A stretch of 64,000 bases of DNA from Naegleria gruberi (Eukaryota). The position numbers and the translations under genes are program-made. Where the stretch lies: the NCBI GenBank assembly GCA_000004985.1, contig GG738845.1; one strand, written 5' to 3'. Below, piece by piece: positions 42,001 through 64,000 of this stretch (position 1 is its first letter; each line of letters starts with the position of its first letter). Under the pieces are notes generated by a model. The model was not told where the DNA came from and did no database searches. It saw only the letters and a list, made by a program, of their open reading frames with translations.

Positions 42001-45000
42001 NNNNNNNNNNNNNNNNNNNNNNNNNNNNNNNNNNNNNNNNNNNNNNNNNNNNNNNNNNNNNNNNNNNNNNNNNNNNNNNNNNNNNNNNNNNNNNNNNNNN
42101 NNNNNNNNNNNNNNNNNNNNNNNNNNNNNNNNNNNNNNNNNNNNNNNNNNNNNNNNNNNNNNNNNNNNNNNNNNNNNNNNNNNNNNNNNNNNNNNNNNNN
42201 NNNNNNNNNNNNNNNNNNNNNNNNNNNNNNNNNNNNNNNNNNNNNNNNNNNNNNNNNNNNNNNNNNNNNNNNNNNNNNNNNNNNNNNNNNNNNNNNNNNN
42301 NNNNNNNNNNNNNNNNNNNNNNNNNNNNNNNNNNNNNNNNNNNNNNNNNNNNNNNNNNNNNNNNNNNNNNNNNNNNNNNNNNNNNNNNNNNNNNNNNNNN
42401 NNNNNNNNNNNNNNNNNNNNNNNNNNNNNNNNNNNNNNNNNNNNNNNNNNNNNNNNNNNNNNNNNNNNNNNNNNNNNNNNNNNNNNNNNNNNNNNNNNNN
42501 NNNNNNNNNNNNNNNNNNNNNNNNNNNNNNNNNNNNNNNNNNNNNNNNNNNNNNNNNNNNNNNNNNNNNNNNNNNNNNNNNNNNNNNNNNNNNNNNNNNN
42601 NNNNNNNNNNNNNNNNNNNNNNNNNNNNNNNNNNNNNNNNNNNNNNNNNNNNNNNNNNNNNNNNNNNNNNNNNNNNNNNNNNNNNNNNNNNNNNNNNNNN
42701 NNNNNNNNNNNNNNNNNNNNNNNNNNNNNNNNNNNNNNNNNNNNNNNNNNNNNNNNNNNNNNNNNNNNNNNNNNNNNNNNNNNNNNNNNNNNNNNNNNNN
42801 NNNNNNNNNNNNNNNNNNNNNNNNNNNNNNNNNNNNNNNNNNNNNNNNNNNNNNNNNNNNNNNNNNNNNNNNNNNNNNNNNNNNNNNNNNNNNNNNNNNN
42901 NNNNNNNNNNNNNNNNNNNNNNNNNNNNNNNNNNNNNNNNNNNNNNNNNNNNNNNNNNNNNNNNNNNNNNNNNNNNNNNNNNNNNNNNNNNNNNNNNNNN
43001 NNNNNNNNNNNNNNNNNNNNNNNNNNNNNNNNNNNNNNNNNNNNNNNNNNNNNNNNNNNNNNNNNNNNNNNNNNNNNNNNNNNNNNNNNNNNNNNNNNNN
43101 NNNNNNNNNNNNNNNNNNNNNNNNNNNNNNNNNNNNNNNNNNNNNNNNNNNNNNNNNNNNNNNNNNNNNNNNNNNNNNNNNNNNNNNNNNNNNNNNNNNN
43201 NNNNNNNNNNNNNNNNNNNNNNNNNNNNNNNNNNNNNNNNNNNNNNNNNNNNNNNNNNNNNNNNNNNNNNNNNNNNNNNNNNNNNNNNNNNNNNNNNNNN
43301 NNNNNNNNNNNNNNNNNNNNNNNNNNNNNNNNNNNNNNNNNNNNNNNNNNNNNNNNNNNNNNNNNNNNNNNNNNNNNNNNNNNNNNNNNNNNNNNNNNNN
43401 NNNNNNNNNNNNNNNNNNNNNNNNNNNNNNNNNNNNNNNNNNNNNNNNNNNNNNNNNNNNNNNNNNNNNNNNNNNNNNNNNNNNNNNNNNNNNNNNNNNN
43501 NNNNNNNNNNNNNNNNNNNNNNNNNNNNNNNNNNNNNNNNNNNNNNNNNNNNNNNNNNNNNNNNNNNNNNNNNNNNNNNNNNNNNNNNNNNNNNNNNNNN
43601 NNNNNNNNNNNNNNNNNNNNNNNNNNNNNNNNNNNNNNNNNNNNNNNNNNNNNNNNNNNNNNNNNNNNNNNNNNNNNNNNNNNNNNNNNNNNNNNNNNNN
43701 NNNNNNNNNNNNNNNNNNNNNNNNNNNNNNNNNNNNNNNNNNNNNNNNNNNNNNNNNNNNNNNNNNNNNNNNNNNNNNNNNNNNNNNNNNNNNNNNNNNN
43801 NNNNNNNNNNNNNNNNNNNNNNNNNNNNNNNNNNNNNNNNNNNNNNNNNNNNNNNNNNNNNNNNNNNNNNNNNNNNNNNNNNNNNNNNNNNNNNNNNNNN
43901 NNNNNNNNNNNNNNNNNNNNNNNNNNNNNNNNNNNNNNNNNNNNNNNNNNNNNNNNNNNNNNNNNNNNNNNNNNNNNNNNNNNNNNNNNNNNNNNNNNNN
44001 NNNNNNNNNNNNNNNNNNNNNNNNNNNNNNNNNNNNNNNNNNNNNNNNNNNNNNNNNNNNNNNNNNNNNNNNNNNNNNNNNNNNNNNNNNNNNNNNNNNN
44101 NNNNNNNNNNNNNNNNNNNNNNNNNNNNNNNNNNNNNNNNNNNNNNNNNNNNNNNNNNNNNNNNNNNNNNNNNNNNNNNNNNNNNNNNNNNNNNNNNNNN
44201 NNNNNNNNNNNNNNNNNNNNNNNNNNNNNNNNNNNNNNNNNNNNNNNNNNNNNNNNNNNNNNNNNNNNNNNNNNNNNNNNNNNNNNNNNNNNNNNNNNNN
44301 NNNNNNNNNNNNNNNNNNNNNNNNNNNNNNNNNNNNNNNNNNNNNNNNNNNNNNNNNNNNNNNNNNNNNNNNNNNNNNNNNNNNNNNNNNNNNNNNNNNN
44401 NNNNNNNNNNNNNNNNNNNNNNNNNNNNNNNNNNNNNNNNNNNNNNNNNNNNNNNNNNNNNNNNNNNNNNNNNNNNNNNNNNNNNNNNNNNNNNNNNNNN
44501 NNNNNNNNNNNNNNNNNNNNNNNNNNNNNNNNNNNNNNNNNNNNNNNNNNNNNNNNNNNNNNNNNNNNNNNNNNNNNNNNNNNNNNNNNNNNNNNNNNNN
44601 NNNNNNNNNNNNNNNNNNNNNNNNNNNNNNNNNNNNNNNNNNNNNNNNNNNNNNNNNNNNNNNNNNNNNNNNNNNNNNNNNNNNNNNNNNNNNNNNNNNN
44701 NNNNNNNNNNNNNNNNNNNNNNNNNNNNNNNNNNNNNNNNNNNNNNNNNNNNNNNNNNNNNNNNNNNNNNNNNNNNNNNNNNNNNNNNNNNNNNNNNNNN
44801 NNNNNNNNNNNNNNNNNNNNNNNNNNNNNNNNNNNNNNNNNNNNNNNNNNNNNNNNNNNNNNNNNNNNNNNNNNNNNNNNNNNNNNNNNNNNNNNNNNNN
44901 NNNNNNNNNNNNNNNNNNNNNNNNNNNNNNNNNNNNNNNNNNNNNNNNNNNNNNNNNNNNNNNNNNNNNNNNNNNNNNNNNNNNNNNNNNNNNNNNNNNN

Positions 45001-48000
45001 NNNNNNNNNNNNNNNNNNNNNNNNNNNNNNNNNNNNNNNNNNNNNNNNNNNNNNNNNNNNNNNNNNNNNNNNNNNNNNNNNNNNNNNNNNNNNNNNNNNN
45101 NNNNNNNNNNNNNNNNNNNNNNNNNNNNNNNNNNNNNNNNNNNNNNNNNNNNNNNNNNNNNNNNNNNNNNNNNNNNNNNNNNNNNNNNNNNNNNNNNNNN
45201 NNNNNNNNNNNNNNNNNNNNNNNNNNNNNNNNNNNNNNNNNNNNNNNNNNNNNNNNNNNNNNNNNNNNNNNNNNNNNNNNNNNNNNNNNNNNNNNNNNNN
45301 NNNNNNNNNNNNNNNNNNNNNNNNNNNNNNNNNNNNNNNNNNNNNNNNNNNNNNNNNNNNNNNNNNNNNNNNNNNNNNNNNNNNNNNNNNNNNNNNNNNN
45401 NNNNNNNNNNNNNNNNNNNNNNNNNNNNNNNNNNNNNNNNNNNNNNNNNNNNNNNNNNNNNNNNNNNNNNNNNNNNNNNNNNNNNNNNNNNNNNNNNNNN
45501 NNNNNNNNNNNNNNNNNNNNNNNNNNNNNNNNNNNNNNNNNNNNNNNNNNNNNNNNNNNNNNNNNNNNNNNNNNNNNNNNNNNNNNNNNNNNNNNNNNNN
45601 NNNNNNNNNNNNNNNNNNNNNNNNNNNNNNNNNNNNNNNNNNNNNNNNNNNNNNNNNNNNNNNNNNNNNNNNNNNNNNNNNNNNNNNNNNNNNNNNNNNN
45701 NNNNNNNNNNNNNNNNNNNNNNNNNNNNNNNNNNNNNNNNNNNNNNNNNNNNNNNNNNNNNNNNNNNNNNNNNNNNNNNNNNNNNNNNNNNNNNNNNNNN
45801 NNNNNNNNNNNNNNNNNNNNNNNNNNNNNNNNNNNNNNNNNNNNNNNNNNNNNNNNNNNNNNNNNNNNNNNNNNNNNNNNNNNNNNNNNNNNNNNNNNNN
45901 NNNNNNNNNNNNNNNNNNNNNNNNNNNNNNNNNNNNNNNNNNNNNNNNNNNNNNNNNNNNNNNNNNNNNNNNNNNNNNNNNNNNNNNNNNNNNNNNNNNN
46001 NNNNNNNNNNNNNNNNNNNNNNNNNNNNNNNNNNNNNNNNNNNNNNNNNNNNNNNNNNNNNNNNNNNNNNNNNNNNNNNNNNNNNNNNNNNNNNNNNNNN
46101 NNNNNNNNNNNNNNNNNNNNNNNNNNNNNNNNNNNNNNNNNNNNNNNNNNNNNNNNNNNNNNNNNNNNNNNNNNNNNNNNNNNNNNNNNNNNNNNNNNNN
46201 NNNNNNNNNNNNNNNNNNNNNNNNNNNNNNNNNNNNNNNNNNNNNNNNNNNNNNNNNNNNNNNNNNNNNNNNNNNNNNNNNNNNNNNNNNNNNNNNNNNN
46301 NNNNNNNNNNNNNNNNNNNNNNNNNNNNNNNNNNNNNNNNNNNNNNNNNNNNNNNNNNNNNNNNNNNNNNNNNNNNNNNNNNNNNNNNNNNNNNNNNNNN
46401 NNNNNNNNNNNNNNNNNNNNNNNNNNNNNNNNNNNNNNNNNNNNNNNNNNNNNNNNNNNNNNNNNNNNNNNNNNNNNNNNNNNNNNNNNNNNNNNNNNNN
46501 NNNNNNNNNNNNNNNNNNNNNNNNNNNNNNNNNNNNNNNNNNNNNNNNNNNNNNNNNNNNNNNNNNNNNNNNNNNNNNNNNNNNNNNNNNNNNNNNNNNN
46601 NNNNNNNNNNNNNNNNNNNNNNNNNNNNNNNNNNNNNNNNNNNNNNNNNNNNNNNNNNNNNNNNNNNNNNNNNNNNNNNNNNNNNNNNNNNNNNNNNNNN
46701 NNNNNNNNNNNNNNNNNNNNNNNNNNNNNNNNNNNNNNNNNNNNNNNNNNNNNNNNNNNNNNNNNNNNNNNNNNNNNNNNNNNNNNNNNNNNNNNNNNNN
46801 NNNNNNNNNNNNNNNNNNNNNNNNNNNNNNNNNNNNNNNNNNNNNNNNNNNNNNNNNNNNNNNNNNNNNNNNNNNNNNNNNNNNNNNNNNNNNNNNNNNN
46901 NNNNNNNNNNNNNNNNNNNNNNNNNNNNNNNNNNNNNNNNNNNNNNNNNNNNNNNNNNNNNNNNNNNNNNNNNNNNNNNNNNNNNNNNNNNNNNNNNNNN
47001 NNNNNNNNNNNNNNNNNNNNNNNNNNNNNNNNNNNNNNNNNNNNNNNNNNNNNNNNNNNNNNNNNNNNNNNNNNNNNNNNNNNNNNNNNNNNNNNNNNNN
47101 NNNNNNNNNNNNNNNNNNNNNNNNNNNNNNNNNNNNNNNNNNNNNNNNNNNNNNNNNNNNNNNNNNNNNNNNNNNNNNNNNNNNNNNNNNNNNNNNNNNN
47201 NNNNNNNNNNNNNNNNNNNNNNNNNNNNNNNNNNNNNNNNNNNNNNNNNNNNNNNNNNNNNNNNNNNNNNNNNNNNNNNNNNNNNNNNNNNNNNNNNNNN
47301 NNNNNNNNNNNNNNNNNNNNNNNNNNNNNNNNNNNNNNNNNNNNNNNNNNNNNNNNNNNNNNNNNNNNNNNNNNNNNNNNNNNNNNNNNNNNNNNNNNNN
47401 NNNNNNNNNNNNNNNNNNNNNNNNNNNNNNNNNNNNNNNNNNNNNNNNNNNNNNNNNNNNNNNNNNNNNNNNNNNNNNNNNNNNNNNNNNNNNNNNNNNN
47501 NNNNNNNNNNNNNNNNNNNNNNNNNNNNNNNNNNNNNNNNNNNNNNNNNNNNNNNNNNNNNNNNNNNNNNNNNNNNNNNNNNNNNNNNNNNNNNNNNNNN
47601 NNNNNNNNNNNNNNNNNNNNNNNNNNNNNNNNNNNNNNNNNNNNNNNNNNNNNNNNNNNNNNNNNNNNNNNNNNNNNNNNNNNNNNNNNNNNNNNNNNNN
47701 NNNNNNNNNNNNNNNNNNNNNNNNNNNNNNNNNNNNNNNNNNNNNNNNNNNNNNNNNNNNNNNNNNNNNNNNNNNNNNNNNNNNNNNNNNNNNNNNNNNN
47801 NNNNNNNNNNNNNNNNNNNNNNNNNNNNNNNNNNNNNNNNNNNNNNNNNNNNNNNNNNNNNNNNNNNNNNNNNNNNNNNNNNNNNNNNNNNNNNNNNNNN
47901 NNNNNNNNNNNNNNNNNNNNNNNNNNNNNNNNNNNNNNNNNNNNNNNNNNNNNNNNNNNNNNNNNNNNNNNNNNNNNNNNNNNNNNNNNNNNNNNNNNNN

Positions 48001-51000
48001 NNNNNNNNNNNNNNNNNNNNNNNNNNNNNNNNNNNNNNNNNNNNNNNNNNNNNNNNNNNNNNNNNNNNNNNNNNNNNNNNNNNNNNNNNNNNNNNNNNNN
48101 NNNNNNNNNNNNNNNNNNNNNNNNNNNNNNNNNNNNNNNNNNNNNNNNNNNNNNNNNNNNNNNNNNNNNNNNNNNNNNNNNNNNNNNNNNNNNNNNNNNN
48201 NNNNNNNNNNNNNNNNNNNNNNNNNNNNNNNNNNNNNNNNNNNNNNNNNNNNNNNNNNNNNNNNNNNNNNNNNNNNNNNNNNNNNNNNNNNNNNNNNNNN
48301 NNNNNNNNNNNNNNNNNNNNNNNNNNNNNNNNNNNNNNNNNNNNNNNNNNNNNNNNNNNNNNNNNNNNNNNNNNNNNNNNNNNNNNNNNNNNNNNNNNNN
48401 NNNNNNNNNNNNNNNNNNNNNNNNNNNNNNNNNNNNNNNNNNNNNNNNNNNNNNNNNNNNNNNNNNNNNNNNNNNNNNNNNNNNNNNNNNNNNNNNNNNN
48501 NNNNNNNNNNNNNNNNNNNNNNNNNNNNNNNNNNNNNNNNNNNNNNNNNNNNNNNNNNNNNNNNNNNNNNNNNNNNNNNNNNNNNNNNNNNNNNNNNNNN
48601 NNNNNNNNNNNNNNNNNNNNNNNNNNNNNNNNNNNNNNNNNNNNNNNNNNNNNNNNNNNNNNNNNNNNNNNNNNNNNNNNNNNNNNNNNNNNNNNNNNNN
48701 NNNNNNNNNNNNNNNNNNNNNNNNNNNNNNNNNNNNNNNNNNNNNNNNNNNNNNNNNNNNNNNNNNNNNNNNNNNNNNNNNNNNNNNNNNNNNNNNNNNN
48801 NNNNNNNNNNNNNNNNNNNNNNNNNNNNNNNNNNNNNNNNNNNNNNNNNNNNNNNNNNNNNNNNNNNNNNNNNNNNNNNNNNNNNNNNNNNNNNNNNNNN
48901 NNNNNNNNNNNNNNNNNNNNNNNNNNNNNNNNNNNNNNNNNNNNNNNNNNNNNNNNNNNNNNNNNNNNNNNNNNNNNNNNNNNNNNNNNNNNNNNNNNNN
49001 NNNNNNNNNNNNNNNNNNNNNNNNNNNNNNNNNNNNNNNNNNNNNNNNNNNNNNNNNNNNNNNNNNNNNNNNNNNNNNNNNNNNNNNNNNNNNNNNNNNN
49101 NNNNNNNNNNNNNNNNNNNNNNNNNNNNNNNNNNNNNNNNNNNNNNNNNNNNNNNNNNNNNNNNNNNNNNNNNNNNNNNNNNNNNNNNNNNNNNNNNNNN
49201 NNNNNNNNNNNNNNNNNNNNNNNNNNNNNNNNNNNNNNNNNNNNNNNNNNNNNNNNNNNNNNNNNNNNNNNNNNNNNNNNNNNNNNNNNNNNNNNNNNNN
49301 NNNNNNNNNNNNNNNNNNNNNNNNNNNNNNNNNNNNNNNNNNNNNNNNNNNNNNNNNNNNNNNNNNNNNNNNNNNNNNNNNNNNNNNNNNNNNNNNNNNN
49401 NNNNNNNNNNNNNNNNNNNNNNNNNNNNNNNNNNNNNNNNNNNNNNNNNNNNNNNNNNNNNNNNNNNNNNNNNNNNNNNNNNNNNNNNNNNNNNNNNNNN
49501 NNNNNNNNNNNNNNNNNNNNNNNNNNNNNNNNNNNNNNNNNNNNNNNNNNNNNNNNNNNNNNNNNNNNNNNNNNNNNNNNNNNNNNNNNNNNNNNNNNNN
49601 NNNNNNNNNNNNNNNNNNNNNNNNNNNNNNNNNNNNNNNNNNNNNNNNNNNNNNNNNNNNNNNNNNNNNNNNNNNNNNNNNNNNNNNNNNNNNNNNNNNN
49701 NNNNNNNNNNNNNNNNNNNNNNNNNNNNNNNNNNNNNNNNNNNNNNNNNNNNNNNNNNNNNNNNNNNNNNNNNNNNNNNNNNNNNNNNNNNNNNNNNNNN
49801 NNNNNNNNNNNNNNNNNNNNNNNNNNNNNNNNNNNNNNNNNNNNNNNNNNNNNNNNNNNNNNNNNNNNNNNNNNNNNNNNNNNNNNNNNNNNNNNNNNNN
49901 NNNNNNNNNNNNNNNNNNNNNNNNNNNNNNNNNNNNNNNNNNNNNNNNNNNNNNNNNNNNNNNNNNNNNNNNNNNNNNNNNNNNNNNNNNNNNNNNNNNN
50001 NNNNNNNNNNNNNNNNNNNNNNNNNNNNNNNNNNNNNNNNNNNNNNNNNNNNNNNNNNNNNNNNNNNNNNNNNNNNNNNNNNNNNNNNNNNNNNNNNNNN
50101 NNNNNNNNNNNNNNNNNNNNNNNNNNNNNNNNNNNNNNNNNNNNNNNNNNNNNNNNNNNNNNNNNNNNNNNNNNNNNNNNNNNNNNNNNNNNNNNNNNNN
50201 NNNNNNNNNNNNNNNNNNNNNNNNNNNNNNNNNNNNNNNNNNNNNNNNNNNNNNNNNNNNNNNNNNNNNNNNNNNNNNNNNNNNNNNNNNNNNNNNNNNN
50301 NNNNNNNNNNNNNNNNNNNNNNNNNNNNNNNNNNNNNNNNNNNNNNNNNNNNNNNNNNNNNNNNNNNNNNNNNNNNNNNNNNNNNNNNNNNNNNNNNNNN
50401 NNNNNNNNNNNNNNNNNNNNNNNNNNNNNNNNNNNNNNNNNNNNNNNNNNNNNNNNNNNNNNNNNNNNNNNNNNNNNNNNNNNNNNNNNNNNNNNNNNNN
50501 NNNNNNNNNNNNNNNNNNNNNNNNNNNNNNNNNNNNNNNNNNNNNNNNNNNNNNNNNNNNNNNNNNNNNNNNNNNNNNNNNNNNNNNNNNNNNNNNNNNN
50601 NNNNNNNNNNNNNNNNNNNNNNNNNNNNNNNNNNNNNNNNNNNNNNNNNNNNNNNNNNNNNNNNNNNNNNNNNNNNNNNNNNNNNNNNNNNNNNNNNNNN
50701 NNNNNNNNNNNNNNNNNNNNNNNNNNNNNNNNNNNNNNNNNNNNNNNNNNNNNNNNNNNNNNNNNNNNNNNNNNNNNNNNNNNNNNNNNNNNNNNNNNNN
50801 NNNNNNNNNNNNNNNNNNNNNNNNNNNNNNNNNNNNNNNNNNNNNNNNNNNNNNNNNNNNNNNNNNNNNNNNNNNNNNNNNNNNNNNNNNNNNNNNNNNN
50901 NNNNNNNNNNNNNNNNNNNNNNNNNNNNNNNNNNNNNNNNNNNNNNNNNNNNNNNNNNNNNNNNNNNNNNNNNNNNNNNNNNNNNNNNNNNNNNNNNNNN

Positions 51001-54000
51001 NNNNNNNNNNNNNNNNNNNNNNNNNNNNNNNNNNNNNNNNNNNNNNNNNNNNNNNNNNNNNNNNNNNNNNNNNNNNNNNNNNNNNNNNNNNNNNNNNNNN
51101 NNNNNNNNNNNNNNNNNNNNNNNNNNNNNNNNNNNNNNNNNNNNNNNNNNNNNNNNNNNNNNNNNNNNNNNNNNNNNNNNNNNNNNNNNNNNNNNNNNNN
51201 NNNNNNNNNNNNNNNNNNNNNNNNNNNNNNNNNNNNNNNNNNNNNNNNNNNNNNNNNNNNNNNNNNNNNNNNNNNNNNNNNNNNNNNNNNNNNNNNNNNN
51301 NNNNNNNNNNNNNNNNNNNNNNNNNNNNNNNNNNNNNNNNNNNNNNNNNNNNNNNNNNNNNNNNNNNNNNNNNNNNNNNNNNNNNNNNNNNNNNNNNNNN
51401 NNNNNNNNNNNNNNNNNNNNNNNNNNNNNNNNNNNNNNNNNNNNNNNNNNNNNNNNNNNNNNNNNNNNNNNNNNNNNNNNNNNNNNNNNNNNNNNNNNNN
51501 NNNNNNNNNNNNNNNNNNNNNNNNNNNNNNNNNNNNNNNNNNNNNNNNNNNNNNNNNNNNNNNNNNNNNNNNNNNNNNNNNNNNNNNNNNNNNNNNNNNN
51601 NNNNNNNNNNNNNNNNNNNNNNNNNNNNNNNNNNNNNNNNNNNNNNNNNNNNNNNNNNNNNNNNNNNNNNNNNNNNNNNNNNNNNNNNNNNNNNNNNNNN
51701 NNNNNNNNNNNNNNNNNNNNNNNNNNNNNNNNNNNNNNNNNNNNNNNNNNNNNNNNNNNNNNNNNNNNNNNNNNNNNNNNNNNNNNNNNNNNNNNNNNNN
51801 NNNNNNNNNNNNNNNNNNNNNNNNNNNNNNNNNNNNNNNNNNNNNNNNNNNNNNNNNNNNNNNNNNNNNNNNNNNNNNNNNNNNNNNNNNNNNNNNNNNN
51901 NNNNNNNNNNNNNNNNNNNNNNNNNNNNNNNNNNNNNNNNNNNNNNNNNNNNNNNNNNNNNNNNNNNNNNNNNNNNNNNNNNNNNNNNNNNNNNNNNNNN
52001 NNNNNNNNNNNNNNNNNNNNNNNNNNNNNNNNNNNNNNNNNNNNNNNNNNNNNNNNNNNNNNNNNNNNNNNNNNNNNNNNNNNNNNNNNNNNNNNNNNNN
52101 NNNNNNNNNNNNNNNNNNNNNNNNNNNNNNNNNNNNNNNNNNNNNNNNNNNNNNNNNNNNNNNNNNNNNNNNNNNNNNNNNNNNNNNNNNNNNNNNNNNN
52201 NNNNNNNNNNNNNNNNNNNNNNNNNNNNNNNNNNNNNNNNNNNNNNNNNNNNNNNNNNNNNNNNNNNNNNNNNNNNNNNNNNNNNNNNNNNNNNNNNNNN
52301 NNNNNNNNNNNNNNNNNNNNNNNNNNNNNNNNNNNNNNNNNNNNNNNNNNNNNNNNNNNNNNNNNNNNNNNNNNNNNNNNNNNNNNNNNNNNNNNNNNNN
52401 NNNNNNNNNNNNNNNNNNNNNNNNNNNNNNNNNNNNNNNNNNNNNNNNNNNNNNNNNNNNNNNNNNNNNNNNNNNNNNNNNNNNNNNNNNNNNNNNNNNN
52501 NNNNNNNNNNNNNNNNNNNNNNNNNNNNNNNNNNNNNNNNNNNNNNNNNNNNNNNNNNNNNNNNNNNNNNNNNNNNNNNNNNNNNNNNNNNNNNNNNNNN
52601 NNNNNNNNNNNNNNNNNNNNNNNNNNNNNNNNNNNNNNNNNNNNNNNNNNNNNNNNNNNNNNNNNNNNNNNNNNNNNNNNNNNNNNNNNNNNNNNNNNNN
52701 NNNNNNNNNNNNNNNNNNNNNNNNNNNNNNNNNNNNNNNNNNNNNNNNNNNNNNNNNNNNNNNNNNNNNNNNNNNNNNNNNNNNNNNNNNNNNNNNNNNN
52801 NNNNNNNNNNNNNNNNNNNNNNNNNNNNNNNNNNNNNNNNNNNNNNNNNNNNNNNNNNNNNNNNNNNNNNNNNNNNNNNNNNNNNNNNNNNNNNNNNNNN
52901 NNNNNNNNNNNNNNNNNNNNNNNNNNNNNNNNNNNNNNNNNNNNNNNNNNNNNNNNNNNNNNNNNNNNNNNNNNNNNNNNNNNNNNNNNNNNNNNNNNNN
53001 NNNNNNNNNNNNNNNNNNNNNNNNNNNNNNNNNNNNNNNNNNNNNNNNNNNNNNNNNNNNNNNNNNNNNNNNNNNNNNNNNNNNNNNNNNNNNNNNNNNN
53101 NNNNNNNNNNNNNNNNNNNNNNNNNNNNNNNNNNNNNNNNNNNNNNNNNNNNNNNNNNNNNNNNNNNNNNNNNNNNNNNNNNNNNNNNNNNNNNNNNNNN
53201 NNNNNNNNNNNNNNNNNNNNNNNNNNNNNNNNNNNNNNNNNNNNNNNNNNNNNNNNNNNNNNNNNNNNNNNNNNNNNNNNNNNNNNNNNNNNNNNNNNNN
53301 NNNNNNNNNNNNNNNNNNNNNNNNNNNNNNNNNNNNNNNNNNNNNNNNNNNNNNNNNNNNNNNNNNNNNNNNNNNNNNNNNNNNNNNNNNNNNNNNNNNN
53401 NNNNNNNNNNNNNNNNNNNNNNNNNNNNNNNNNNNNNNNNNNNNNNNNNNNNNNNNNNNNNNNNNNNNNNNNNNNNNNNNNNNNNNNNNNNNNNNNNNNN
53501 NNNNNNNNNNNNNNNNNNNNNNNNNNNNNNNNNNNNNNNNNNNNNNNNNNNNNNNNNNNNNNNNNNNNNNNNNNNNNNNNNNNNNNNNNNNNNNNNNNNN
53601 NNNNNNNNNNNNNNNNNNNNNNNNNNNNNNNNNNNNNNNNNNNNNNNNNNNNNNNNNNNNNNNNNNNNNNNNNNNNNNNNNNNNNNNNNNNNNNNNNNNN
53701 NNNNNNNNNNNNNNNNNNNNNNNNNNNNNNNNNNNNNNNNNNNNNNNNNNNNNNNNNNNNNNNNNNNNNNNNNNNNNNNNNNNNNNNNNNNNNNNNNNNN
53801 NNNNNNNNNNNNNNNNNNNNNNNNNNNNNNNNNNNNNNNNNNNNNNNNNNNNNNNNNNNNNNNNNNNNNNNNNNNNNNNNNNNNNNNNNNNNNNNNNNNN
53901 NNNNNNNNNNNNNNNNNNNNNNNNNNNNNNNNNNNNNNNNNNNNNNNNNNNNNNNNNNNNNNNNNNNNNNNNNNNNNNNNNNNNNNNNNNNNNNNNNNNN

Positions 54001-57000
54001 NNNNNNNNNNNNNNNNNNNNNNNNNNNNNNNNNNNNNNNNNNNNNNNNNNNNNNNNNNNNNNNNNNNNNNNNNNNNNNNNNNNNNNNNNNNNNNNNNNNN
54101 NNNNNNNNNNNNNNNNNNNNNNNNNNNNNNNNNNNNNNNNNNNNNNNNNNNNNNNNNNNNNNNNNNNNNNNNNNNNNNNNNNNNNNNNNNNNNNNNNNNN
54201 NNNNNNNNNNNNNNNNNNNNNNNNNNNNNNNNNNNNNNNNNNNNNNNNNNNNNNNNNNNNNNNNNNNNNNNNNNNNNNNNNNNNNNNNNNNNNNNNNNNN
54301 NNNNNNNNNNNNNNNNNNNNNNNNNNNNNNNNNNNNNNNNNNNNNNNNNNNNNNNNNNNNNNNNNNNNNNNNNNNNNNNNNNNNNNNNNNNNNNNNNNNN
54401 NNNNNNNNNNNNNNNNNNNNNNNNNNNNNNNNNNNNNNNNNNNNNNNNNNNNNNNNNNNNNNNNNNNNNNNNNNNNNNNNNNNNNNNNNNNNNNNNNNNN
54501 NNNNNNNNNNNNNNNNNNNNNNNNNNNNNNNNNNNNNNNNNNNNNNNNNNNNNNNNNNNNNNNNNNNNNNNNNNNNNNNNNNNNNNNNNNNNNNNNNNNN
54601 NNNNNNNNNNNNNNNNNNNNNNNNNNNNNNNNNNNNNNNNNNNNNNNNNNNNNNNNNNNNNNNNNNNNNNNNNNNNNNNNNNNNNNNNNNNNNNNNNNNN
54701 NNNNNNNNNNNNNNNNNNNNNNNNNNNNNNNNNNNNNNNNNNNNNNNNNNNNNNNNNNNNNNNNNNNNNNNNNNNNNNNNNNNNNNNNNNNNNNNNNNNN
54801 NNNNNNNNNNNNNNNNNNNNNNNNNNNNNNNNNNNNNNNNNNNNNNNNNNNNNNNNNNNNNNNNNNNNNNNNNNNNNNNNNNNNNNNNNNNNNNNNNNNN
54901 NNNNNNNNNNNNNNNNNNNNNNNNNNNNNNNNNNNNNNNNNNNNNNNNNNNNNNNNNNNNNNNNNNNNNNNNNNNNNNNNNNNNNNNNNNNNNNNNNNNN
55001 NNNNNNNNNNNNNNNNNNNNNNNNNNNNNNNNNNNNNNNNNNNNNNNNNNNNNNNNNNNNNNNNNNNNNNNNNNNNNNNNNNNNNNNNNNNNNNNNNNNN
55101 NNNNNNNNNNNNNNNNNNNNNNNNNNNNNNNNNNNNNNNNNNNNNNNNNNNNNNNNNNNNNNNNNNNNNNNNNNNNNNNNNNNNNNNNNNNNNNNNNNNN
55201 NNNNNNNNNNNNNNNNNNNNNNNNNNNNNNNNNNNNNNNNNNNNNNNNNNNNNNNNNNNNNNNNNNNNNNNNNNNNNNNNNNNNNNNNNNNNNNNNNNNN
55301 NNNNNNNNNNNNNNNNNNNNNNNNNNNNNNNNNNNNNNNNNNNNNNNNNNNNNNNNNNNNNNNNNNNNNNNNNNNNNNNNNNNNNNNNNNNNNNNNNNNN
55401 NNNNNNNNNNNNNNNNNNNNNNNNNNNNNNNNNNNNNNNNNNNNNNNNNNNNNNNNNNNNNNNNNNNNNNNNNNNNNNNNNNNNNNNNNNNNNNNNNNNN
55501 NNNNNNNNNNNNNNNNNNNNNNNNNNNNNNNNNNNNNNNNNNNNNNNNNNNNNNNNNNNNNNNNNNNNNNNNNNNNNNNNNNNNNNNNNNNNNNNNNNNN
55601 NNNNNNNNNNNNNNNNNNNNNNNNNNNNNNNNNNNNNNNNNNNNNNNNNNNNNNNNNNNNNNNNNNNNNNNNNNNNNNNNNNNNNNNNNNNNNNNNNNNN
55701 NNNNNNNNNNNNNNNNNNNNNNNNNNNNNNNNNNNNNNNNNNNNNNNNNNNNNNNNNNNNNNNNNNNNNNNNNNNNNNNNNNNNNNNNNNNNNNNNNNNN
55801 NNNNNNNNNNNNNNNNNNNNNNNNNNNNNNNNNNNNNNNNNNNNNNNNNNNNNNNNNNNNNNNNNNNNNNNNNNNNNNNNNNNNNNNNNNNNNNNNNNNN
55901 NNNNNNNNNNNNNNNNNNNNNNNNNNNNNNNNNNNNNNNNNNNNNNNNNNNNNNNNNNNNNNNNNNNNNNNNNNNNNNNNNNNNNNNNNNNNNNNNNNNN
56001 NNNNNNNNNNNNNNNNNNNNNNNNNNNNNNNNNNNNNNNNNNNNNNNNNNNNNNNNNNNNNNNNNNNNNNNNNNNNNNNNNNNNNNNNNNNNNNNNNNNN
56101 NNNNNNNNNNNNNNNNNNNNNNNNNNNNNNNNNNNNNNNNNNNNNNNNNNNNNNNNNNNNNNNNNNNNNNNNNNNNNNNNNNNNNNNNNNNNNNNNNNNN
56201 NNNNNNNNNNNNNNNNNNNNNNNNNNNNNNNNNNNNNNNNNNNNNNNNNNNNNNNNNNNNNNNNNNNNNNNNNNNNNNNNNNNNNNNNNNNNNNNNNNNN
56301 NNNNNNNNNNNNNNNNNNNNNNNNNNNNNNNNNNNNNNNNNNNNNNNNNNNNNNNNNNNNNNNNNNNNNNNNNNNNNNNNNNNNNNNNNNNNNNNNNNNN
56401 NNNNNNNNNNNNNNNNNNNNNNNNNNNNNNNNNNNNNNNNNNNNNNNNNNNNNNNNNNNNNNNNNNNNNNNNNNNNNNNNNNNNNNNNNNNNNNNNNNNN
56501 NNNNNNNNNNNNNNNNNNNNNNNNNNNNNNNNNNNNNNNNNNNNNNNNNNNNNNNNNNNNNNNNNNNNNNNNNNNNNNNNNNNNNNNNNNNNNNNNNNNN
56601 NNNNNNNNNNNNNNNNNNNNNNNNNNNNNNNNNNNNNNNNNNNNNNNNNNNNNNNNNNNNNNNNNNNNNNNNNNNNNNNNNNNNNNNNNNNNNNNNNNNN
56701 NNNNNNNNNNNNNNNNNNNNNNNNNNNNNNNNNNNNNNNNNNNNNNNNNNNNNNNNNNNNNNNNNNNNNNNNNNNNNNNNNNNNNNNNNNNNNNNNNNNN
56801 NNNNNNNNNNNNNNNNNNNNNNNNNNNNNNNNNNNNNNNNNNNNNNNNNNNNNNNNNNNNNNNNNNNNNNNNNNNNNNNNNNNNNNNNNNNNNNNNNNNN
56901 NNNNNNNNNNNNNNNNNNNNNNNNNNNNNNNNNNNNNNNNNNNNNNNNNNNNNNNNNNNNNNNNNNNNNNNNNNNNNNNNNNNNNNNNNNNNNNNNNNNN

Positions 57001-60000
57001 NNNNNNNNNNNNNNNNNNNNNNNNNNNNNNNNNNNNNNNNNNNNNNNNNNNNNNNNNNNNNNNNNNNNNNNNNNNNNNNNNNNNNNNNNNNNNNNNNNNN
57101 NNNNNNNNNNNNNNNNNNNNNNNNNNNNNNNNNNNNNNNNNNNNNNNNNNNNNNNNNNNNNNNNNNNNNNNNNNNNNNNNNNNNNNNNNNNNNNNNNNNN
57201 NNNNNNNNNNNNNNNNNNNNNNNNNNNNNNNNNNNNNNNNNNNNNNNNNNNNNNNNNNNNNNNNNNNNNNNNNNNNNNNNNNNNNNNNNNNNNNNNNNNN
57301 NNNNNNNNNNNNNNNNNNNNNNNNNNNNNNNNNNNNNNNNNNNNNNNNNNNNNNNNNNNNNNNNNNNNNNNNNNNNNNNNNNNNNNNNNNNNNNNNNNNN
57401 NNNNNNNNNNNNNNNNNNNNNNNNNNNNNNNNNNNNNNNNNNNNNNNNNNNNNNNNNNNNNNNNNNNNNNNNNNNNNNNNNNNNNNNNNNNNNNNNNNNN
57501 NNNNNNNNNNNNNNNNNNNNNNNNNNNNNNNNNNNNNNNNNNNNNNNNNNNNNNNNNNNNNNNNNNNNNNNNNNNNNNNNNNNNNNNNNNNNNNNNNNNN
57601 NNNNNNNNNNNNNNNNNNNNNNNNNNNNNNNNNNNNNNNNNNNNNNNNNNNNNNNNNNNNNNNNNNNNNNNNNNNNNNNNNNNNNNNNNNNNNNNNNNNN
57701 NNNNNNNNNNNNNNNNNNNNNNNNNNNNNNNNNNNNNNNNNNNNNNNNNNNNNNNNNNNNNNNNNNNNNNNNNNNNNNNNNNNNNNNNNNNNNNNNNNNN
57801 NNNNNNNNNNNNNNNNNNNNNNNNNNNNNNNNNNNNNNNNNNNNNNNNNNNNNNNNNNNNNNNNNNNNNNNNNNNNNNNNNNNNNNNNNNNNNNNNNNNN
57901 NNNNNNNNNNNNNNNNNNNNNNNNNNNNNNNNNNNNNNNNNNNNNNNNNNNNNNNNNNNNNNNNNNNNNNNNNNNNNNNNNNNNNNNNNNNNNNNNNNNN
58001 NNNNNNNNNNNNNNNNNNNNNNNNNNNNNNNNNNNNNNNNNNNNNNNNNNNNNNNNNNNNNNNNNNNNNNNNNNNNNNNNNNNNNNNNNNNNNNNNNNNN
58101 NNNNNNNNNNNNNNNNNNNNNNNNNNNNNNNNNNNNNNNNNNNNNNNNNNNNNNNNNNNNNNNNNNNNNNNNNNNNNNNNNNNNNNNNNNNNNNNNNNNN
58201 NNNNNNNNNNNNNNNNNNNNNNNNNNNNNNNNNNNNNNNNNNNNNNNNNNNNNNNNNNNNNNNNNNNNNNNNNNNNNNNNNNNNNNNNNNNNNNNNNNNN
58301 NNNNNNNNNNNNNNNNNNNNNNNNNNNNNNNNNNNNNNNNNNNNNNNNNNNNNNNNNNNNNNNNNNNNNNNNNNNNNNNNNNNNNNNNNNNNNNNNNNNN
58401 NNNNNNNNNNNNNNNNNNNNNNNNNNNNNNNNNNNNNNNNNNNNNNNNNNNNNNNNNNNNNNNNNNNNNNNNNNNNNNNNNNNNNNNNNNNNNNNNNNNN
58501 NNNNNNNNNNNNNNNNNNNNNNNNNNNNNNNNNNNNNNNNNNNNNNNNNNNNNNNNNNNNNNNNNNNNNNNNNNNNNNNNNNNNNNNNNNNNNNNNNNNN
58601 NNNNNNNNNNNNNNNNNNNNNNNNNNNNNNNNNNNNNNNNNNNNNNNNNNNNNNNNNNNNNNNNNNNNNNNNNNNNNNNNNNNNNNNNNNNNNNNNNNNN
58701 NNNNNNNNNNNNNNNNNNNNNNNNNNNNNNNNNNNNNNNNNNNNNNNNNNNNNNNNNNNNNNNNNNNNNNNNNNNNNNNNNNNNNNNNNNNNNNNNNNNN
58801 NNNNNNNNNNNNNNNNNNNNNNNNNNNNNNNNNNNNNNNNNNNNNNNNNNNNNNNNNNNNNNNNNNNNNNNNNNNNNNNNNNNNNNNNNNNNNNNNNNNN
58901 NNNNNNNNNNNNNNNNNNNNNNNNNNNNNNNNNNNNNNNNNNNNNNNNNNNNNNNNNNNNNNNNNNNNNNNNNNNNNNNNNNNNNNNNNNNNNNNNNNNN
59001 NNNNNNNNNNNNNNNNNNNNNNNNNNNNNNNNNNNNNNNNNNNNNNNNNNNNNNNNNNNNNNNNNNNNNNNNNNNNNNNNNNNNNNNNNNNNNNNNNNNN
59101 NNNNNNNNNNNNNNNNNNNNNNNNNNNNNNNNNNNNNNNNNNNNNNNNNNNNNNNNNNNNNNNNNNNNNNNNNNNNNNNNNNNNNNNNNNNNNNNNNNNN
59201 NNNNNNNNNNNNNNNNNNNNNNNNNNNNNNNNNNNNNNNNNNNNNNNNNNNNNNNNNNNNNNNNNNNNNNNNNNNNNNNNNNNNNNNNNNNNNNNNNNNN
59301 NNNNNNNNNNNNNNNNNNNNNNNNNNNNNNNNNNNNNNNNNNNNNNNNNNNNNNNNNNNNNNNNNNNNNNNNNNNNNNNNNNNNNNNNNNNNNNNNNNNN
59401 NNNNNNNNNNNNNNNNNNNNNNNNNNNNNNNNNNNNNNNNNNNNNNNNNNNNNNNNNNNNNNNNNNNNNNNNNNNNNNNNNNNNNNNNNNNNNNNNNNNN
59501 NNNNNNNNNNNNNNNNNNNNNNNNNNNNNNNNNNNNNNNNNNNNNNNNNNNNNNNNNNNNNNNNNNNNNNNNNNNNNNNNNNNNNNNNNNNNNNNNNNNN
59601 NNNNNNNNNNNNNNNNNNNNNNNNNNNNNNNNNNNNNNNNNNNNNNNNNNNNNNNNNNNNNNNNNNNNNNNNNNNNNNNNNNNNNNNNNNNNNNNNNNNN
59701 NNNNNNNNNNNNNNNNNNNNNNNNNNNNNNNNNNNNNNNNNNNNNNNNNNNNNNNNNNNNNNNNNNNNNNNNNNNNNNNNNNNNNNNNNNNNNNNNNNNN
59801 NNNNNNNNNNNNNNNNNNNNNNNNNNNNNNNNNNNNNNNNNNNNNNNNNNNNNNNNNNNNNNNNNNNNNNNNNNNNNNNNNNNNNNNNNNNNNNNNNNNN
59901 NNNNNNNNNNNNNNNNNNNNNNNNNNNNNNNNNNNNNNNNNNNNNNNNNNNNNNNNNNNNNNNNNNNNNNNNNNNNNNNNNNNNNNNNNNNNNNNNNNNN

Positions 60001-60103
60001 NNNNNNNNNNNNNNNNNNNNNNNNNNNNNNNNNNNNNNNNNNNNNNNNNNNNNNNNNNNNNNNNNNNNNNNNNNNNNNNNNNNNNNNNNNNNNNNNNNNN
60101 NNN
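1..60103. other. Run of N: assembly gap or hard-masked sequence with no base information
   Basis: Every position 1..60103 is 'n'. The first called base is t at 60104. Confidence 0.99.
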
Positions 60104-60104
60104 T

Positions 60105-61022
60105 GAAAAAGAATTACTACAAGCAAAGATTGAGAATGACAATCTTATATCTCAAATCAATCAGAAAAACGAAAAGATTGAAGTTGTGCAATCAGAGGCT
60201 GCCCGCTTAAAGCAAAGTATGGATGACAAAACAAGAGTTTTAGTTCTTTTGATTCAAGAACTTTCAAATTTGACAAGTAATGGAGATTCTAAATTAACCA
60301 ATGTTCATTTGAAGAAGATTGTTTCAAGATACAATACAATTTTAACAAAAGGAATCAAGACAAACAATCAAGCAGAAAAGTTGAGAGATACAATAGAAGA
60401 ATTTGAAAGGCAAAGAGGATTTTTAGAACAAACCATAACAGGAATGAAAAGAACCCTATCGACAAGAGAAGAGCATCTAAAAAACGATCTTTTAAGAAAG
60501 AATAATGAAAATTCCATTTTAGTAGAAGAAATCAATCAATTAAGAAAAGATCAAAAGCAGTACAAACAAAGAATAATATCTTTAGAATACCAGCTCAAGA
60601 ATGCTCTTCATTTCCAACAGCAAGCACAAAGAGAATTGAACTCCTCGGCCTCCAATCCTGCATCGACTATATCTTCTGCGAGATCAAGACGAGTTGGAAG
60701 TGCCACATCTGCAAGTAGATCTTCCCTTAATAGAATACGAACTCCGGATGCATTCTTTGGAAATAGTGACATTACAGGTTTGGACAGACGAAAGGTTGCT
60801 GAATTTGTGGACTCTCTAGAAAAGAATAACAAACGATTCGAACAACAACAGCAGGATATTGACAAACTAAAGAACTATGTTCAAAACTTGTTGGAAGATG
60901 AGGGTTCGAAATCTCCTTCATCACAAAGTGACGATAATAACATTTCGTTTGGCGATTCTCCTCTTCTGGTTTCATCAGAAAAGCAAAAACCAAAATTGGC
61001 TCCGATTAAGATAAATAAATAA
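60105..61022 (+). CDS. 3' part (305 codons plus TAA) of a gene for a long coiled-coil protein with a Ser/Thr-rich C-terminal tail. The 5' end is lost in the N run.
   Basis: The frame is open from the first full codon after the gap (60105 gaa) to TAA at 61020..61022. The ORF-track start at 60186 is GTG inside an uninterrupted frame; I translated 27 further sense codons upstream of it (EKELLQAKIENDNLISQINQKNEKIEV...). The protein is rich in E/K/Q/L with heptad-like spacing (e.g. RIISLEYQLKNALHFQQQAQRELN), typical of coiled coils. It is followed by an S/T/R-rich segment and a short acidic/Ser tail. Codon usage matches the neighbouring ORFs. Confidence 0.8.
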   Translation, partial: EKELLQAKIENDNLISQINQKNEKIEVVQSEAARLKQSMDDKTRVLVLLIQELSNLTSNGDSKLTNVHLKKIVSRYNTILTKGIKTNNQAEKLRDTIEEFERQRGFLEQTITGMKRTLSTREEHLKNDLLRKNNENSILVEEINQLRKDQKQYKQRIISLEYQLKNALHFQQQAQRELNSSASNPASTISSARSRRVGSATSASRSSLNRIRTPDAFFGNSDITGLDRRKVAEFVDSLEKNNKRFEQQQQDIDKLKNYVQNLLEDEGSKSPSSQSDDNNISFGDSPLLVSSEKQKPKLAPIKINK

Positions 61023-61200
61023 TTTATTGTTTTTGTCGCAAGTTATGTACAAAGGTTGTTGATCTAGGGTCTGGTTTGTTTAGCTTGTGTTTGAACGTTA
61101 GGTTGTTGGTGATCGGCGATAGTTGCTAATTTAATTAGATTTTGTTGTAATTTCACTTGGAGTCTTTGTAAATCAATTCCATAATAAATTTTAGTATTGC
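61023..61200 (+). terminator. Putative 3' UTR / polyadenylation region of the coiled-coil gene, with yeast-type efficiency element TATGTA (61044..61049) and AATAAA (61183..61188)
   Basis: TATGTA lies 22 nt downstream of the TAA. The stop itself sits in ATAAATAAATAA, and a downstream AATAAA follows. These match the known yeast 3'-end processing elements (TATATA/TATGTA efficiency element, A-rich positioning element). The cleavage site cannot be determined from sequence. Confidence 0.3.
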
Positions 61201-61299
61201 CAGTCAAATATTGATAATAGTTAATATTTTGTGATGTAGATCAAACATACGGTTCACATTGATCGAATTGTCCTAGTTTTTGTCTTTCAATAATAGCAA

Positions 61300-61509
61300 A
61301 AATTAATTGTTGATTTTCGTCTAAATACTAATAAAGTTGTTGTTATTGTTGCGATATGAAACGTACATCCTGTATAGTTTTTGTGGTAATATTGCTGGCC
61401 GATGTATTCATATTGTCATTTGATGATGAAGCACGAGGTTGTGTGTTCATTTTTTGTTCCGACAAAAATTATTTTGATTTAAAAAAATGATACACAACAA
61501 AGTAATAAT
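61300..61509 (+). promoter_or_regulatory. Putative promoter / 5' leader of the 277-aa ORF: A7 tract at 61481..61487, T6 tract at 61450..61455, two short uORFs (61356..61490 and 61487..61525), no canonical TATAAA
   Basis: This 487-bp intergenic region lies between a convergent stop and the next start. Poly(dA:dT) tracts immediately upstream of the ATG are typical of yeast nucleosome-depleted promoters. A-rich -3 context (aataATGt). Confidence 0.25.
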
Positions 61510-62343
61510 ATGTATTCAAATATGAAAATGGAAAATTATTTTGAACAAGTGTTAAAACAACAACACCTAGTTAACGATGATTTAATTGGCTTTTCTGAGT
61601 ACTTAGACCGATTACTAGAATTAAAAGATTCCTATGAACCGCCATCAATTAGGAAGGATATTGATCAATCACCACTTATGAATGTATTCGGTTTAAAACG
61701 TTCCACGGTGAAGCCTTCTTTTTTATTTTCTCATACTCCAGATATTAAACGACTTTCAGAATTTAAAAACTACTACGTTGAAAAAACATTCAACAGACAA
61801 CCTGCTTTCAAAGCTTCTTTTAGAAACAAGAACAGGGATATTAATAATGATCATTCATTTATTGAAAAGTTGGAATTGTTATTTGGCGAGAATGAAAAGT
61901 ATTTGGATAAATTGACTGATTTGAAAACTCTCTATCACATAAAGCAACTCATTTCAAAATATGAAAGGAAAAATCAATTACAAAGTAATGAGGATTTTAA
62001 TATTTATAATAGGAAGGACAATAGTTTCAATTCTTCTTCATTTTATCATCAACCAAACAAGTCACTCACTGAAGAGAGTTCAACTATTATTCATAGACTG
62101 ATTTTAACAAGTGAACTATTTTCGCCCTACGAATTTTCAAGTGATACTAACCAAAGTGCTGCTTTGAAATCATTTCAGATAGTTTTACATGGTAGCTCTA
62201 AAATATTGAAGAAGAGGCTATCCTCTCTACCAATGTATAATGATATTTATTCATCCCTCATTGAACAATGCGATAAAAGATTCTCAACACTGAGAAGGGA
62301 AATATTTCCTCAAGTAGGTTTTTTATTTTACAAATTGTTGTAA
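61510..62343 (+). CDS. Hypothetical protein, 277 aa, no motif recognised. Possibly the 5' exon or N-terminal part of a larger gene continuing at 62401.
   Basis: ATG at 61510 with A-rich upstream context; open frame to TAA 62341..62343. Codon bias and amino-acid composition (K/N/S/L/F-rich) are the same as the flanking ORFs. Further in-frame ATGs at codons 5 and 7 (61522, 61528) leave the start choice ambiguous. Confidence 0.65.
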   Translation: MYSNMKMENYFEQVLKQQHLVNDDLIGFSEYLDRLLELKDSYEPPSIRKDIDQSPLMNVFGLKRSTVKPSFLFSHTPDIKRLSEFKNYYVEKTFNRQPAFKASFRNKNRDINNDHSFIEKLELLFGENEKYLDKLTDLKTLYHIKQLISKYERKNQLQSNEDFNIYNRKDNSFNSSSFYHQPNKSLTEESSTIIHRLILTSELFSPYEFSSDTNQSAALKSFQIVLHGSSKILKKRLSSLPMYNDIYSSLIEQCDKRFSTLRREIFPQVGFLFYKLL

Positions 62344-62400
62344 AAAACATGAAATCCTGATTAGCCACCTGACAGGTCAATCCCAACCAAGGAAATATCT

Positions 62401-64000
62401 ATGGAACAAATAGAATGGTTGAGTACAAAATATTTACCAAATATTTTCAGACATAGAGTTGATTGGGAAAATAGTCTCACAAAGAGATCAGAGCTGATTT
62501 ACAAACTCTTGTCCTATTTTTCAAAACAACCTGATCAAACAAACAAGGATTGGAGTTCTATAATTTGCTCCCAATACCCTGTTATGGTAAAAAGAAATGG
62601 GCAATATATGTTGATTTTCGGTATTCGTTGGAAGCCATTCACAAATATTAACAATACAATTCAATCTCTCAGGGAAAAGGGTTTATATGGTTTGGAATTT
62701 AATACAGAGCACTTCAACAACTTTCCATACTTTTTCAGGGATGGGAAAGAGTGTATTCCAACAGAAAGGCCAAATGTTACATCATCAACCCTTTTGAGAG
62801 ATTTTAAAAAACAATTGAAAACTCAAATAATAGACAGATCAGGAACAAACAAATACTCTTTTCCAAAACATCCACCATTCAGACATTGGGTATTCGATTT
62901 CTTCTTTAATCAGAGTATGTTAAGTAAGAATGATTTCCTAGCTGTTATGGAAGGAAGGAGATCCCTGCTGGAGATTATACTCAAGTATAGACCCGATCAA
63001 GTGTTGGAAAATCAAATTTATCAAACACTGATAACACAGATCGAGGAATGTTTGAAATCATCGAGAAGAGGTCATTCTTTTAAAAATACTATAGGCCACA
63101 GTGATTTGAAAAGTATACAGATTCCTGATTCCTCAAAATATCTCTCACTATTTCTTCCTTTTTACTTTCATATTGATGATAGTGAAATGTTAAGAGTTGA
63201 TCATTTATTTTCTATTAATTTGGAAGAATATATCAGATATTTTAGAAGAGTTTTAAGCGAATTGAGCGATTCTAATCTCTCCCAAGTGGGAATTTTGGAT
63301 ATATTCGAAATTAGAGAATCAATACAAGAAAACATAATGTACAACCACAAAAATCACATTAATAACTCTCTATTTAATGTTGTGGAAATTTCTAACCCTT
63401 CAAAAGGACATTATATCATTGACATTATTCCTAATCTAATTGAAACCATTCGCTCAAATGTGAAATTTTTAAGGTTGGATAATTTATATTGGAAACTCTA
63501 TTCGAGAGGACTTTACATCCCCGAAAATCCAATACTCCACCGAGATTTTATTCTACAAAGTATTAAAACCTTTCTGCATGATTTGAAAAATCGACAAGAT
63601 AAAACGGCAAGAAAATTCAATACCAAACAAGAGGACACTAATCTATTGCAAGATAACTTGACTCTAATGTCCAGATTTTTGAATTTGAAATGGAAGAGGC
63701 CTTTAGCATACGTTCAAGTTATGACCCCTTCTACAAGATTGGTCATTTCCAAATTGGTGAAAACCTATTTCCACCCCTTACACCAAGTTTTACAACACGA
63801 ACATGGCTCCCCAACTATTCCATCAAAATTGGTCAATACTATCATCCCATTCCAATCTAGAGTTAGCACTTTTGCGATAAAGCTGCTGGAAGTCACTCCT
63901 TCCCAGAACAACAATAATCAGGAAGACACTTTGGTAGATACTGTAAAGACCTTCATTGGAAAGTACAAACACGATGTACACAGATGCGAAAAGCAACTGT
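62401..64000 (+). CDS. Hypothetical protein, at least 533 aa, 3'-partial (open to the window end), no domain recognised. In the same frame as the upstream 277-aa ORF.
   Basis: I translated all 533 codons from ATG 62401 to the window edge by hand and found no stop. The ORF track omits it because no stop is reached. A-rich context before the ATG; consistent AT-rich third positions; short Asn run (NNNN at 63910..63921). Confidence 0.75.
   Translation, partial: MEQIEWLSTKYLPNIFRHRVDWENSLTKRSELIYKLLSYFSKQPDQTNKDWSSIICSQYPVMVKRNGQYMLIFGIRWKPFTNINNTIQSLREKGLYGLEFNTEHFNNFPYFFRDGKECIPTERPNVTSSTLLRDFKKQLKTQIIDRSGTNKYSFPKHPPFRHWVFDFFFNQSMLSKNDFLAVMEGRRSLLEIILKYRPDQVLENQIYQTLITQIEECLKSSRRGHSFKNTIGHSDLKSIQIPDSSKYLSLFLPFYFHIDDSEMLRVDHLFSINLEEYIRYFRRVLSELSDSNLSQVGILDIFEIRESIQENIMYNHKNHINNSLFNVVEISNPSKGHYIIDIIPNLIETIRSNVKFLRLDNLYWKLYSRGLYIPENPILHRDFILQSIKTFLHDLKNRQDKTARKFNTKQEDTNLLQDNLTLMSRFLNLKWKRPLAYVQVMTPSTRLVISKLVKTYFHPLHQVLQHEHGSPTIPSKLVNTIIPFQSRVSTFAIKLLEVTPSQNNNNQEDTLVDTVKTFIGKYKHDVHRCEKQL

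Follow-up and report, generated by a model that had tools for sequence, protein, structure and literature searches.

Short spliceosomal introns of the U2 type interrupt the Naegleria fowleri, N. lovaniensis, and Willaertia orthologues of the gene considered here. In these Naegleriidae they run from GT to AG with a GTAAGT-like donor, measure about 45-50 nt, and are AT- or T-rich. The N. gruberi NEG-M genome has a GC content of 33% and 1.7 exons per gene, its introns being 203 bp long on average, and for N. fowleri a minimum intron length of 30 bp was chosen from predicted genes (PMC8296547). A literature search turned up summary statistics of this kind and no N. gruberi splice-site consensus (PMC8296547); RNA-seq data from the species are deposited as PRJEB23822 (PMC6142364). 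We analyzed the end of a 64,000-nucleotide stretch of N. gruberi contig GG738845.1, hereafter the window. Two tandem open reading frames (ORFs) are found there, one encoding 277 residues (ORF2) and the other still open at the last base (ORF3), which lie in the same frame (positions congruent to 1 mod 3) and are separated by a spacer of 57 nt. Three stop codons occupy that frame between the two ORFs: TAA at 62341-62343, TGA at 62350-62352, and TAG at 62362-62364.

We propose that ORF2 and ORF3 are exons 1 and 2 of one N. gruberi gene, parted by a conventional 51-nt U2-type spliceosomal intron (Table 1). From sequence comparisons we put the probability of this reading at roughly 0.88. Splicing at 62313/62365 would join CCT CAA to CCA CCT (TTTCCTCAA to CCACCTGACAGG), and the spliced protein would read LRREIFPQ followed directly by PPDRSIPTKEISMEQIEWL. 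The three in-frame stops would then sit in the intron and be absent from the mature mRNA. Since the intron that contains them has a length divisible by three, an unspliced transcript would end early and would not give a protein with a 17-residue insertion. In short-intron eukaryotes such as Paramecium, retention of introns that are a multiple of three long and contain stops leads to premature termination and nonsense-mediated decay. The 51 nt with their three stops resemble introns of that type, as a single case. The multiple-of-three introns of the relatives likewise hold in-frame stops, the 48-nt intron of N. fowleri and the 45-nt intron of N. lovaniensis both reading ..G TAA... Overall, the predicted N. 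gruberi intron is ordinary and short, of a conventional kind that does not challenge current understanding; 51 nt is a normal size, since the same gene in relatives has GT-AG introns of 44-49 nt. It is also far too short for a self-splicing (group I or II) intron, and a search of 60104..64000 against Rfam gave no match at E<=1 to such an intron or to any other structured RNA family.

Table 1. Features of the ORF2-ORF3 locus and candidate introns scored with a hidden Markov model (HMM) of the homologues only.
Feature	Position	Strand	Size and character	Basis or score
Upstream ORF	60104..61022	+	open from the first base past the N run; TAA 61020-61022	ORF listing
277-aa ORF (ORF2)	61510..62343	+	ends at TAA 62341-62343	ORF listing, translation
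Downstream frame (ORF3)	62365..64000	+	open to window end; first ATG 62401	translation
Predicted exon 1	61510..62313	+	268 codons if the start is ATG 61510	ORF listing, BLASTP, tblastn
Predicted intron, GT-AG	62314..62364	+	51 nt, phase 0; holds all three in-frame stops	homologue collinearity, HMM ranking
Predicted 5' splice site	62314..62319	+	GTAGGT; exon side CAA	read from sequence
Predicted intron 3' end	62357..62364	+	CTGATTAG; acceptor AG 62363-62364	read from sequence
Predicted exon 2	62365..64000	+	545 codons in window; open to the last base, continues beyond	translation, HMMER, alignment
Candidate intron	62314..62364		51 nt	471.2 bits (top of 21)
Candidate intron	62337..62375		39 nt	464.0 bits
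Candidate intron	62340..62375		36 nt	463.0 bits
Candidate intron	62314..62391		78 nt	450.6 bits

The case for a single gene comes from its homologues. With the translation of 62365..63999 as query, an exhaustive HMMER search of representatives of 50%-identity clusters returned nine relatives, among them N. fowleri CAG4716169.1 (1386 aa, E=7e-107), Willaertia magna KAL9652587.1 (1689 aa, E=1e-79), and a 1082-aa metagenome protein. The match in the Willaertia protein runs from residue 276 onward, and thus leaves over an N-terminal stretch of the size of ORF2. By BLASTP, residues 10-267 of ORF2 align with residues 14-256 of the same protein (E=1e-26). This alignment ends at the P of FPQ, one residue short of the proposed exon end, and the last nine residues of ORF2 (VGFLFYKLL) have no counterpart in the homologues, either by BLASTP or in an alignment of the junction. 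In a profile search, N. lovaniensis C9374_000579 (1605 aa) covered 91% of the fused ORF2 and ORF3. The original prediction, which had been made from the DNA letters alone, had suggested a comparison with orthologues, and in N. lovaniensis, N. fowleri, and W. magna we found a single polypeptide of 1386-1689 aa that comprises ORF2 and then ORF3, collinear. At the nucleotide level, tblastn with the fused protein gave one high-scoring segment pair that spans the junction without a break in each of two species, N. fowleri (L002 94-2118) and Willaertia (L001 3040-5562), and the exon 1 part thus had hits in both loci. A word-index search with the fused 813-aa protein returned no match, which reflects a failure of sensitivity, since the HMMER and alignment searches found clear homologues.

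The relatives are uninterrupted at the site that corresponds to the junction. The N. fowleri ORF (L002 193-4353) is unbroken there and reads LRSNIFPPPPLYDLP, and the coding sequences of N. lovaniensis and Willaertia are likewise continuous. When the junction is aligned, the unspliced N. gruberi sequence exceeds all five homologues by exactly 17 codons, located between FPQ and PPD (VGFLFYKLL-stop-KT-stop-NPD-stop). Removing them yields FPQPPDRSIP, which has the same length as FPPPPLYDLP in N. fowleri and FPPPPLHDLP in N. lovaniensis, and which has PQPP in common with the YPQPPNDIP of the metagenome homologue. The frame reopens at 62365, and the 12 open codons that precede ATG 62401 (62365-62400, PPDRSIPTKEIS) align with the conserved PP..D(L/I)P...K(D/E)(Y/I)S of the homologues, while the M of ATG 62401 itself aligns with an internal L or M. 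The coding sequence therefore extends upstream of this ATG.

To place the intron boundaries, every frame-preserving GT/GC-AG pair that removes all three stops (n=21) was scored against the homologue-only HMM, and the 51-nt intron ranked first (Table 1). It corresponds to the first of two acceptors that had been put forward for a spliced gene, with GTAGGT as donor and REIFPQ/PPDRSIPTKEISMEQIEWL as junction, and the collinearity of the homologues bears this choice out. The donor matches GTAAGT at five of six positions, and is the only one among the ranked models that resembles the sites of the relatives, whose five recovered introns begin with GTAAGT in four cases and GTAAGA in one. The intron has 23.5% GC and 41% T, compared with 30-34% GC in the exons. 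We infer from these features that the spliceosome uses the 62314 and 62364 sites. A candidate branch site, CTGAT (62357-62361), fits yUrAy, and the A-run at 62352-62354 and TTTAC at 62327-62331 are weaker candidates.

Several observations weigh against the proposed intron. Its lead over the 36- and 39-nt alternatives is only about 7 bits, and its donor has G, not A, at +4, unlike all five introns recovered from relatives. The A of CTGAT (62360) is unusually close to the acceptor, 4 nt from the intron end, and if A62360 served as the branch point, one would expect splicing to the AG at 62375. In the introns of relatives, TTGAC or TTTAC stands 8-13 nt from the acceptor; N. gruberi has no motif of this type at that distance. 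Finally, the intron position is common to no relative, and no N. gruberi protein for this gene turned up in the protein collections.

Given these points, the explanation that survives best beside the proposed intron is one gene with one intron of other boundaries, although we consider it improbable. Such an intron could have 36 or 39 nt, from a donor at 62340 (GTAAAA) or 62337 (GTTGTA) to the CAG ending at 62375, and the protein would read FPQVGFLFYKL(L)SIPTKEIS; it could also have 78 nt, from the 62314 donor to the second acceptor of the original prediction at 62391, and yield FPQ/EISMEQ. All three options keep the frame and drop the three stops. The two shorter introns lie above the 30-bp minimum set for N. 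fowleri (PMC8296547), and they place the CTGAT branch site (A62360) 15 nt before the acceptor, a more conventional spacing than that from CTGAT to 62364. However, the only donors that the AG at 62375 can pair with in frame are the poor ones at 62337 and 62340, which have no G at +5 and are far less GTAAGT-like than GTAGGT. Both options would also retain VGFLFYKLL, which matches no homologue, and lose the conserved PP-D motif (62365-62373), and the introns recovered from relatives span 44-67 nt, none having 36. The 78-nt option, for which CTGAC at 62369-62373 had been noted as a branch-like motif, falls 20 bits below the 51-nt intron and removes nine homologue-aligned residues (PPDRSIPTK), so deleting the conserved PP-D-(I/L)P motif. 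As a separate observation on this region, near-tandem copies of CCTGA(T/C)..AG, CCTGATTAG and CCACCTGACAG, are present at and just past the 3' splice site (62357..62375). They offer acceptors at 62364 and 62375, the second of which shifts the frame when combined with the 62314 donor.

An independent copy of the locus bears on the remaining explanations. The metagenome contig L003 (European Nucleotide Archive, ENA; assembly ERZ929261, run ERR1078381) comes from a different sequencing project and was assembled independently. It is 99.8% identical to window positions 61478..63859, and the spacer and a 130-nt region around the junction are identical in the two sequences. We counted four substitutions between the window and the L003 strain, which are too few for an estimate of nonsynonymous to synonymous rates (dN/dS): one upstream (A>C at 61490), one that exchanges Asn for Ser (A>G at 62240), and one each at codon position 1 (C>A at 63574) and codon position 3 (T>C at 63684). 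When JGI metagenome contigs were scanned for exact matches to the spliced and to the unspliced junction, each pattern gave 0 hits, and this null is uninformative because that collection is without the locus.

It is very unlikely that the gene was recently disabled, that is, that a 51-nt stop-bearing insertion broke it in the N. gruberi lineage and that its GT...AG ends are coincidental. As the coding sequence of the relatives is continuous at this site, the 51 nt do resemble an insertion specific to N. gruberi, and the lack of an N. gruberi protein model in the collections fits such a view as well. On the other hand, all stops are confined to one 51-nt GT..AG block and are not scattered; outside it the frames are intact, for 268 codons on one side and no fewer than 545 on the other, against a background of ~32% GC in which stops arise easily, and both ORFs are also open in the second strain, L003. 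The putative insertion moreover starts with a five-in-six match to the donor hexamer of the lineage, ends in AG, and is T-rich, and its removal restores the length of the orthologues exactly. The orthologues and L003 thus contradict the suggestion, made before these comparisons, of a pseudogene or an assembly error.

Still less probable is a fission of the gene in N. gruberi into two separate, tightly packed genes, with ORF2 ending at TAA 62341, ORF3 starting at ATG 62401, and the shared frame a coincidence. Both ORFs do have an ATG start and ORF2 has a stop, and a prokaryote-style gene caller split L003 in the same way. This possibility, which had also been raised earlier, is contradicted by the L003 contig and by the orthologues, as in each of the three sequenced relatives both parts belong to a single polypeptide. 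It would also leave the 12 conserved codons before ATG 62401 and the internal position of M62401 without a place, as well as a C-terminal end of ORF2 that aligns with nothing, and 57 nt give no room for a terminator and a promoter.

The least probable explanations are an assembly or sequencing error, which the very long N run next to the locus might suggest but which is excluded because L003 carries the identical spacer, and recoding, since stop-codon readthrough would have to pass three different stops within 24 nt and to translate 17 codons without counterpart in the homologues, and a frameshift through frame 2, which is indeed open across 62318..62410, would need two compensating shifts (both as originally stated) and yields a peptide unrelated to the homologues.

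The doubts raised at first about an intron have a common origin. The ORF ends, the three in-frame stops, ATG 62401, the shared frame, the spacers of 57 nt and, upstream of ORF2, 487 nt (61023..61509), and the positions of GTAGGT and CTGAC were all exact on recheck. The original prediction had, however, taken the DNA for a budding-yeast-like genome and judged the 57-bp spacing anomalous by the rules of yeast. The ORF upstream of ORF2, which encodes a coiled-coil protein, is 100% identical to the N. gruberi hypothetical protein NAEGRDRAFT_77745 (XP_002683136.1), located on a 1.56-Mb scaffold. N. gruberi, an amoeboflagellate of the Heterolobosea (family Naegleriidae), is no budding yeast, and the intergenic spacing of yeasts is irrelevant to it. 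The reluctance to accept an intron that does not match GTATGT...TACTAAC...YAG falls because the organism is not a yeast: the introns of Saccharomycotina are similar in being GT-AG, spliceosomal, and few per gene, but neither the GTATGT nor the TACTAAC consensus holds for a heterolobosean amoeba. The supposed anomaly arose entirely from the wrong assumption about the organism, which is a caution for readings made from sequence only.

The intron positions of this gene differ among the Naegleriidae. N. fowleri (48 nt), N. lovaniensis (45 nt), and Willaertia (49 nt) have in common a phase-2 intron between FQ(I/V)I and L(H/N)GH, and N. gruberi reads straight through this site (ALKSFQIVLHGSS). Willaertia contains a second intron of 44 nt between IELS and GLKD, and the five introns recovered from relatives measure 44, 45, 48, 49, and 67 nt. 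Unlike these, the N. gruberi intron lies between FPQ and PPD in phase 0, 46 codons downstream of the shared phase-2 intron. We tentatively suggest, at slightly less than even odds, that the N. gruberi lineage acquired the 51-nt intron recently and lost the ancestral phase-2 intron that lay 46 codons farther upstream. With Willaertia as outgroup, parsimony prefers one gain to two independent losses; intron loss is generally commoner than gain. Either way, the differing positions are ordinary intron turnover, whether by gain in N. gruberi or by retention there with losses elsewhere, and they add one small case of intron-position difference among Naegleria species. If gain and loss both took place, the locus would be a clean, datable example of how introns turn over inside a single genus, in a gene seemingly missing from the N. 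gruberi protein set.

The gene is predicted to encode a large uncharacterized protein of about 1400-1700 aa, judging from orthologues of 1386-1689 aa. The only family members that we saw come from Naegleria, Willaertia, and a small number of unidentified environmental or Logan contigs. Pfam gave nothing beyond sub-threshold noise for the three ORFs of the window, three full-length homologues, and the members of the alignment, and a profile search of the PDB returned nothing meaningful. We also considered a transposase or repeat and rejected it, the hit to TNP-like_RNaseH_N reaching only E=0.04 and a score of 14.8 bits, below the cut-off of 24.6. For the ORF3 part, an AlphaFold2 model made with a 10-sequence alignment was too poor to use (predicted local distance difference test, pLDDT, 43; predicted template modeling score, pTM, 0.22). 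Beyond the window, the homologues (P0002, P0003, P0007, P0014) share a strongly conserved C-terminal block, FGG.AGGECELLL ... GWMN..DI.G.G ... EYYPG.SLE.N ... HP ... IPLF.LEF. This block has no Pfam match and could be a catalytic or binding domain.

A deposited model of this gene seems to be lacking for N. gruberi, since the exhaustive search of cluster representatives found no protein above 40% identity even though the collection contains other N. gruberi proteins. Annotation should join the two ORFs in a single multi-exon gene model, probably for an unannotated gene of a conserved family. In such a model, ATG 61522 or 61528 is more likely than ATG 61510 to be the true initiation codon. L003 lacks the G of ATG 61510-61512 (window 61512, L003 position 36), so that this start codon is lost and the reading frame is displaced upstream of ATG 61522, yet from ATG 61522 on the frame is kept.

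The window begins with a single run of 60,103 N (1..60103, 94% of its length), and real DNA occupies only 60104..64000 (3,897 bases). The very long N run that the locus adjoins may be a genuine scaffold gap or masking. The upstream ORF is already open at the first base past this run, and its deposited model, of 267 aa, begins at an internal Met (about 60216). It is therefore almost certain that the gap cuts off the 5' end of the NAEGRDRAFT_77745 gene and that the deposited protein is incomplete.

The orthologues show some annotation problems of their own. In N. fowleri, a further exon upstream (L002 1..182, cut off by the end of the contig) is joined to the rest by the 48-nt GTAAGT..TTCAG intron and was missed by the ENA call. 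The RefSeq protein of this species, XP_044561537.1 (1222 aa), starts at an internal MNDSVKSMKK and is apparently truncated, its N-terminus being some 380 residues shorter than that of the 1605-aa protein of N. lovaniensis. Next to the gene, a convergent DNA topoisomerase I gene is found in both N. fowleri (L002 4379..6520, minus strand) and N. lovaniensis (L004 7904..10037, minus strand), which indicates conserved synteny.

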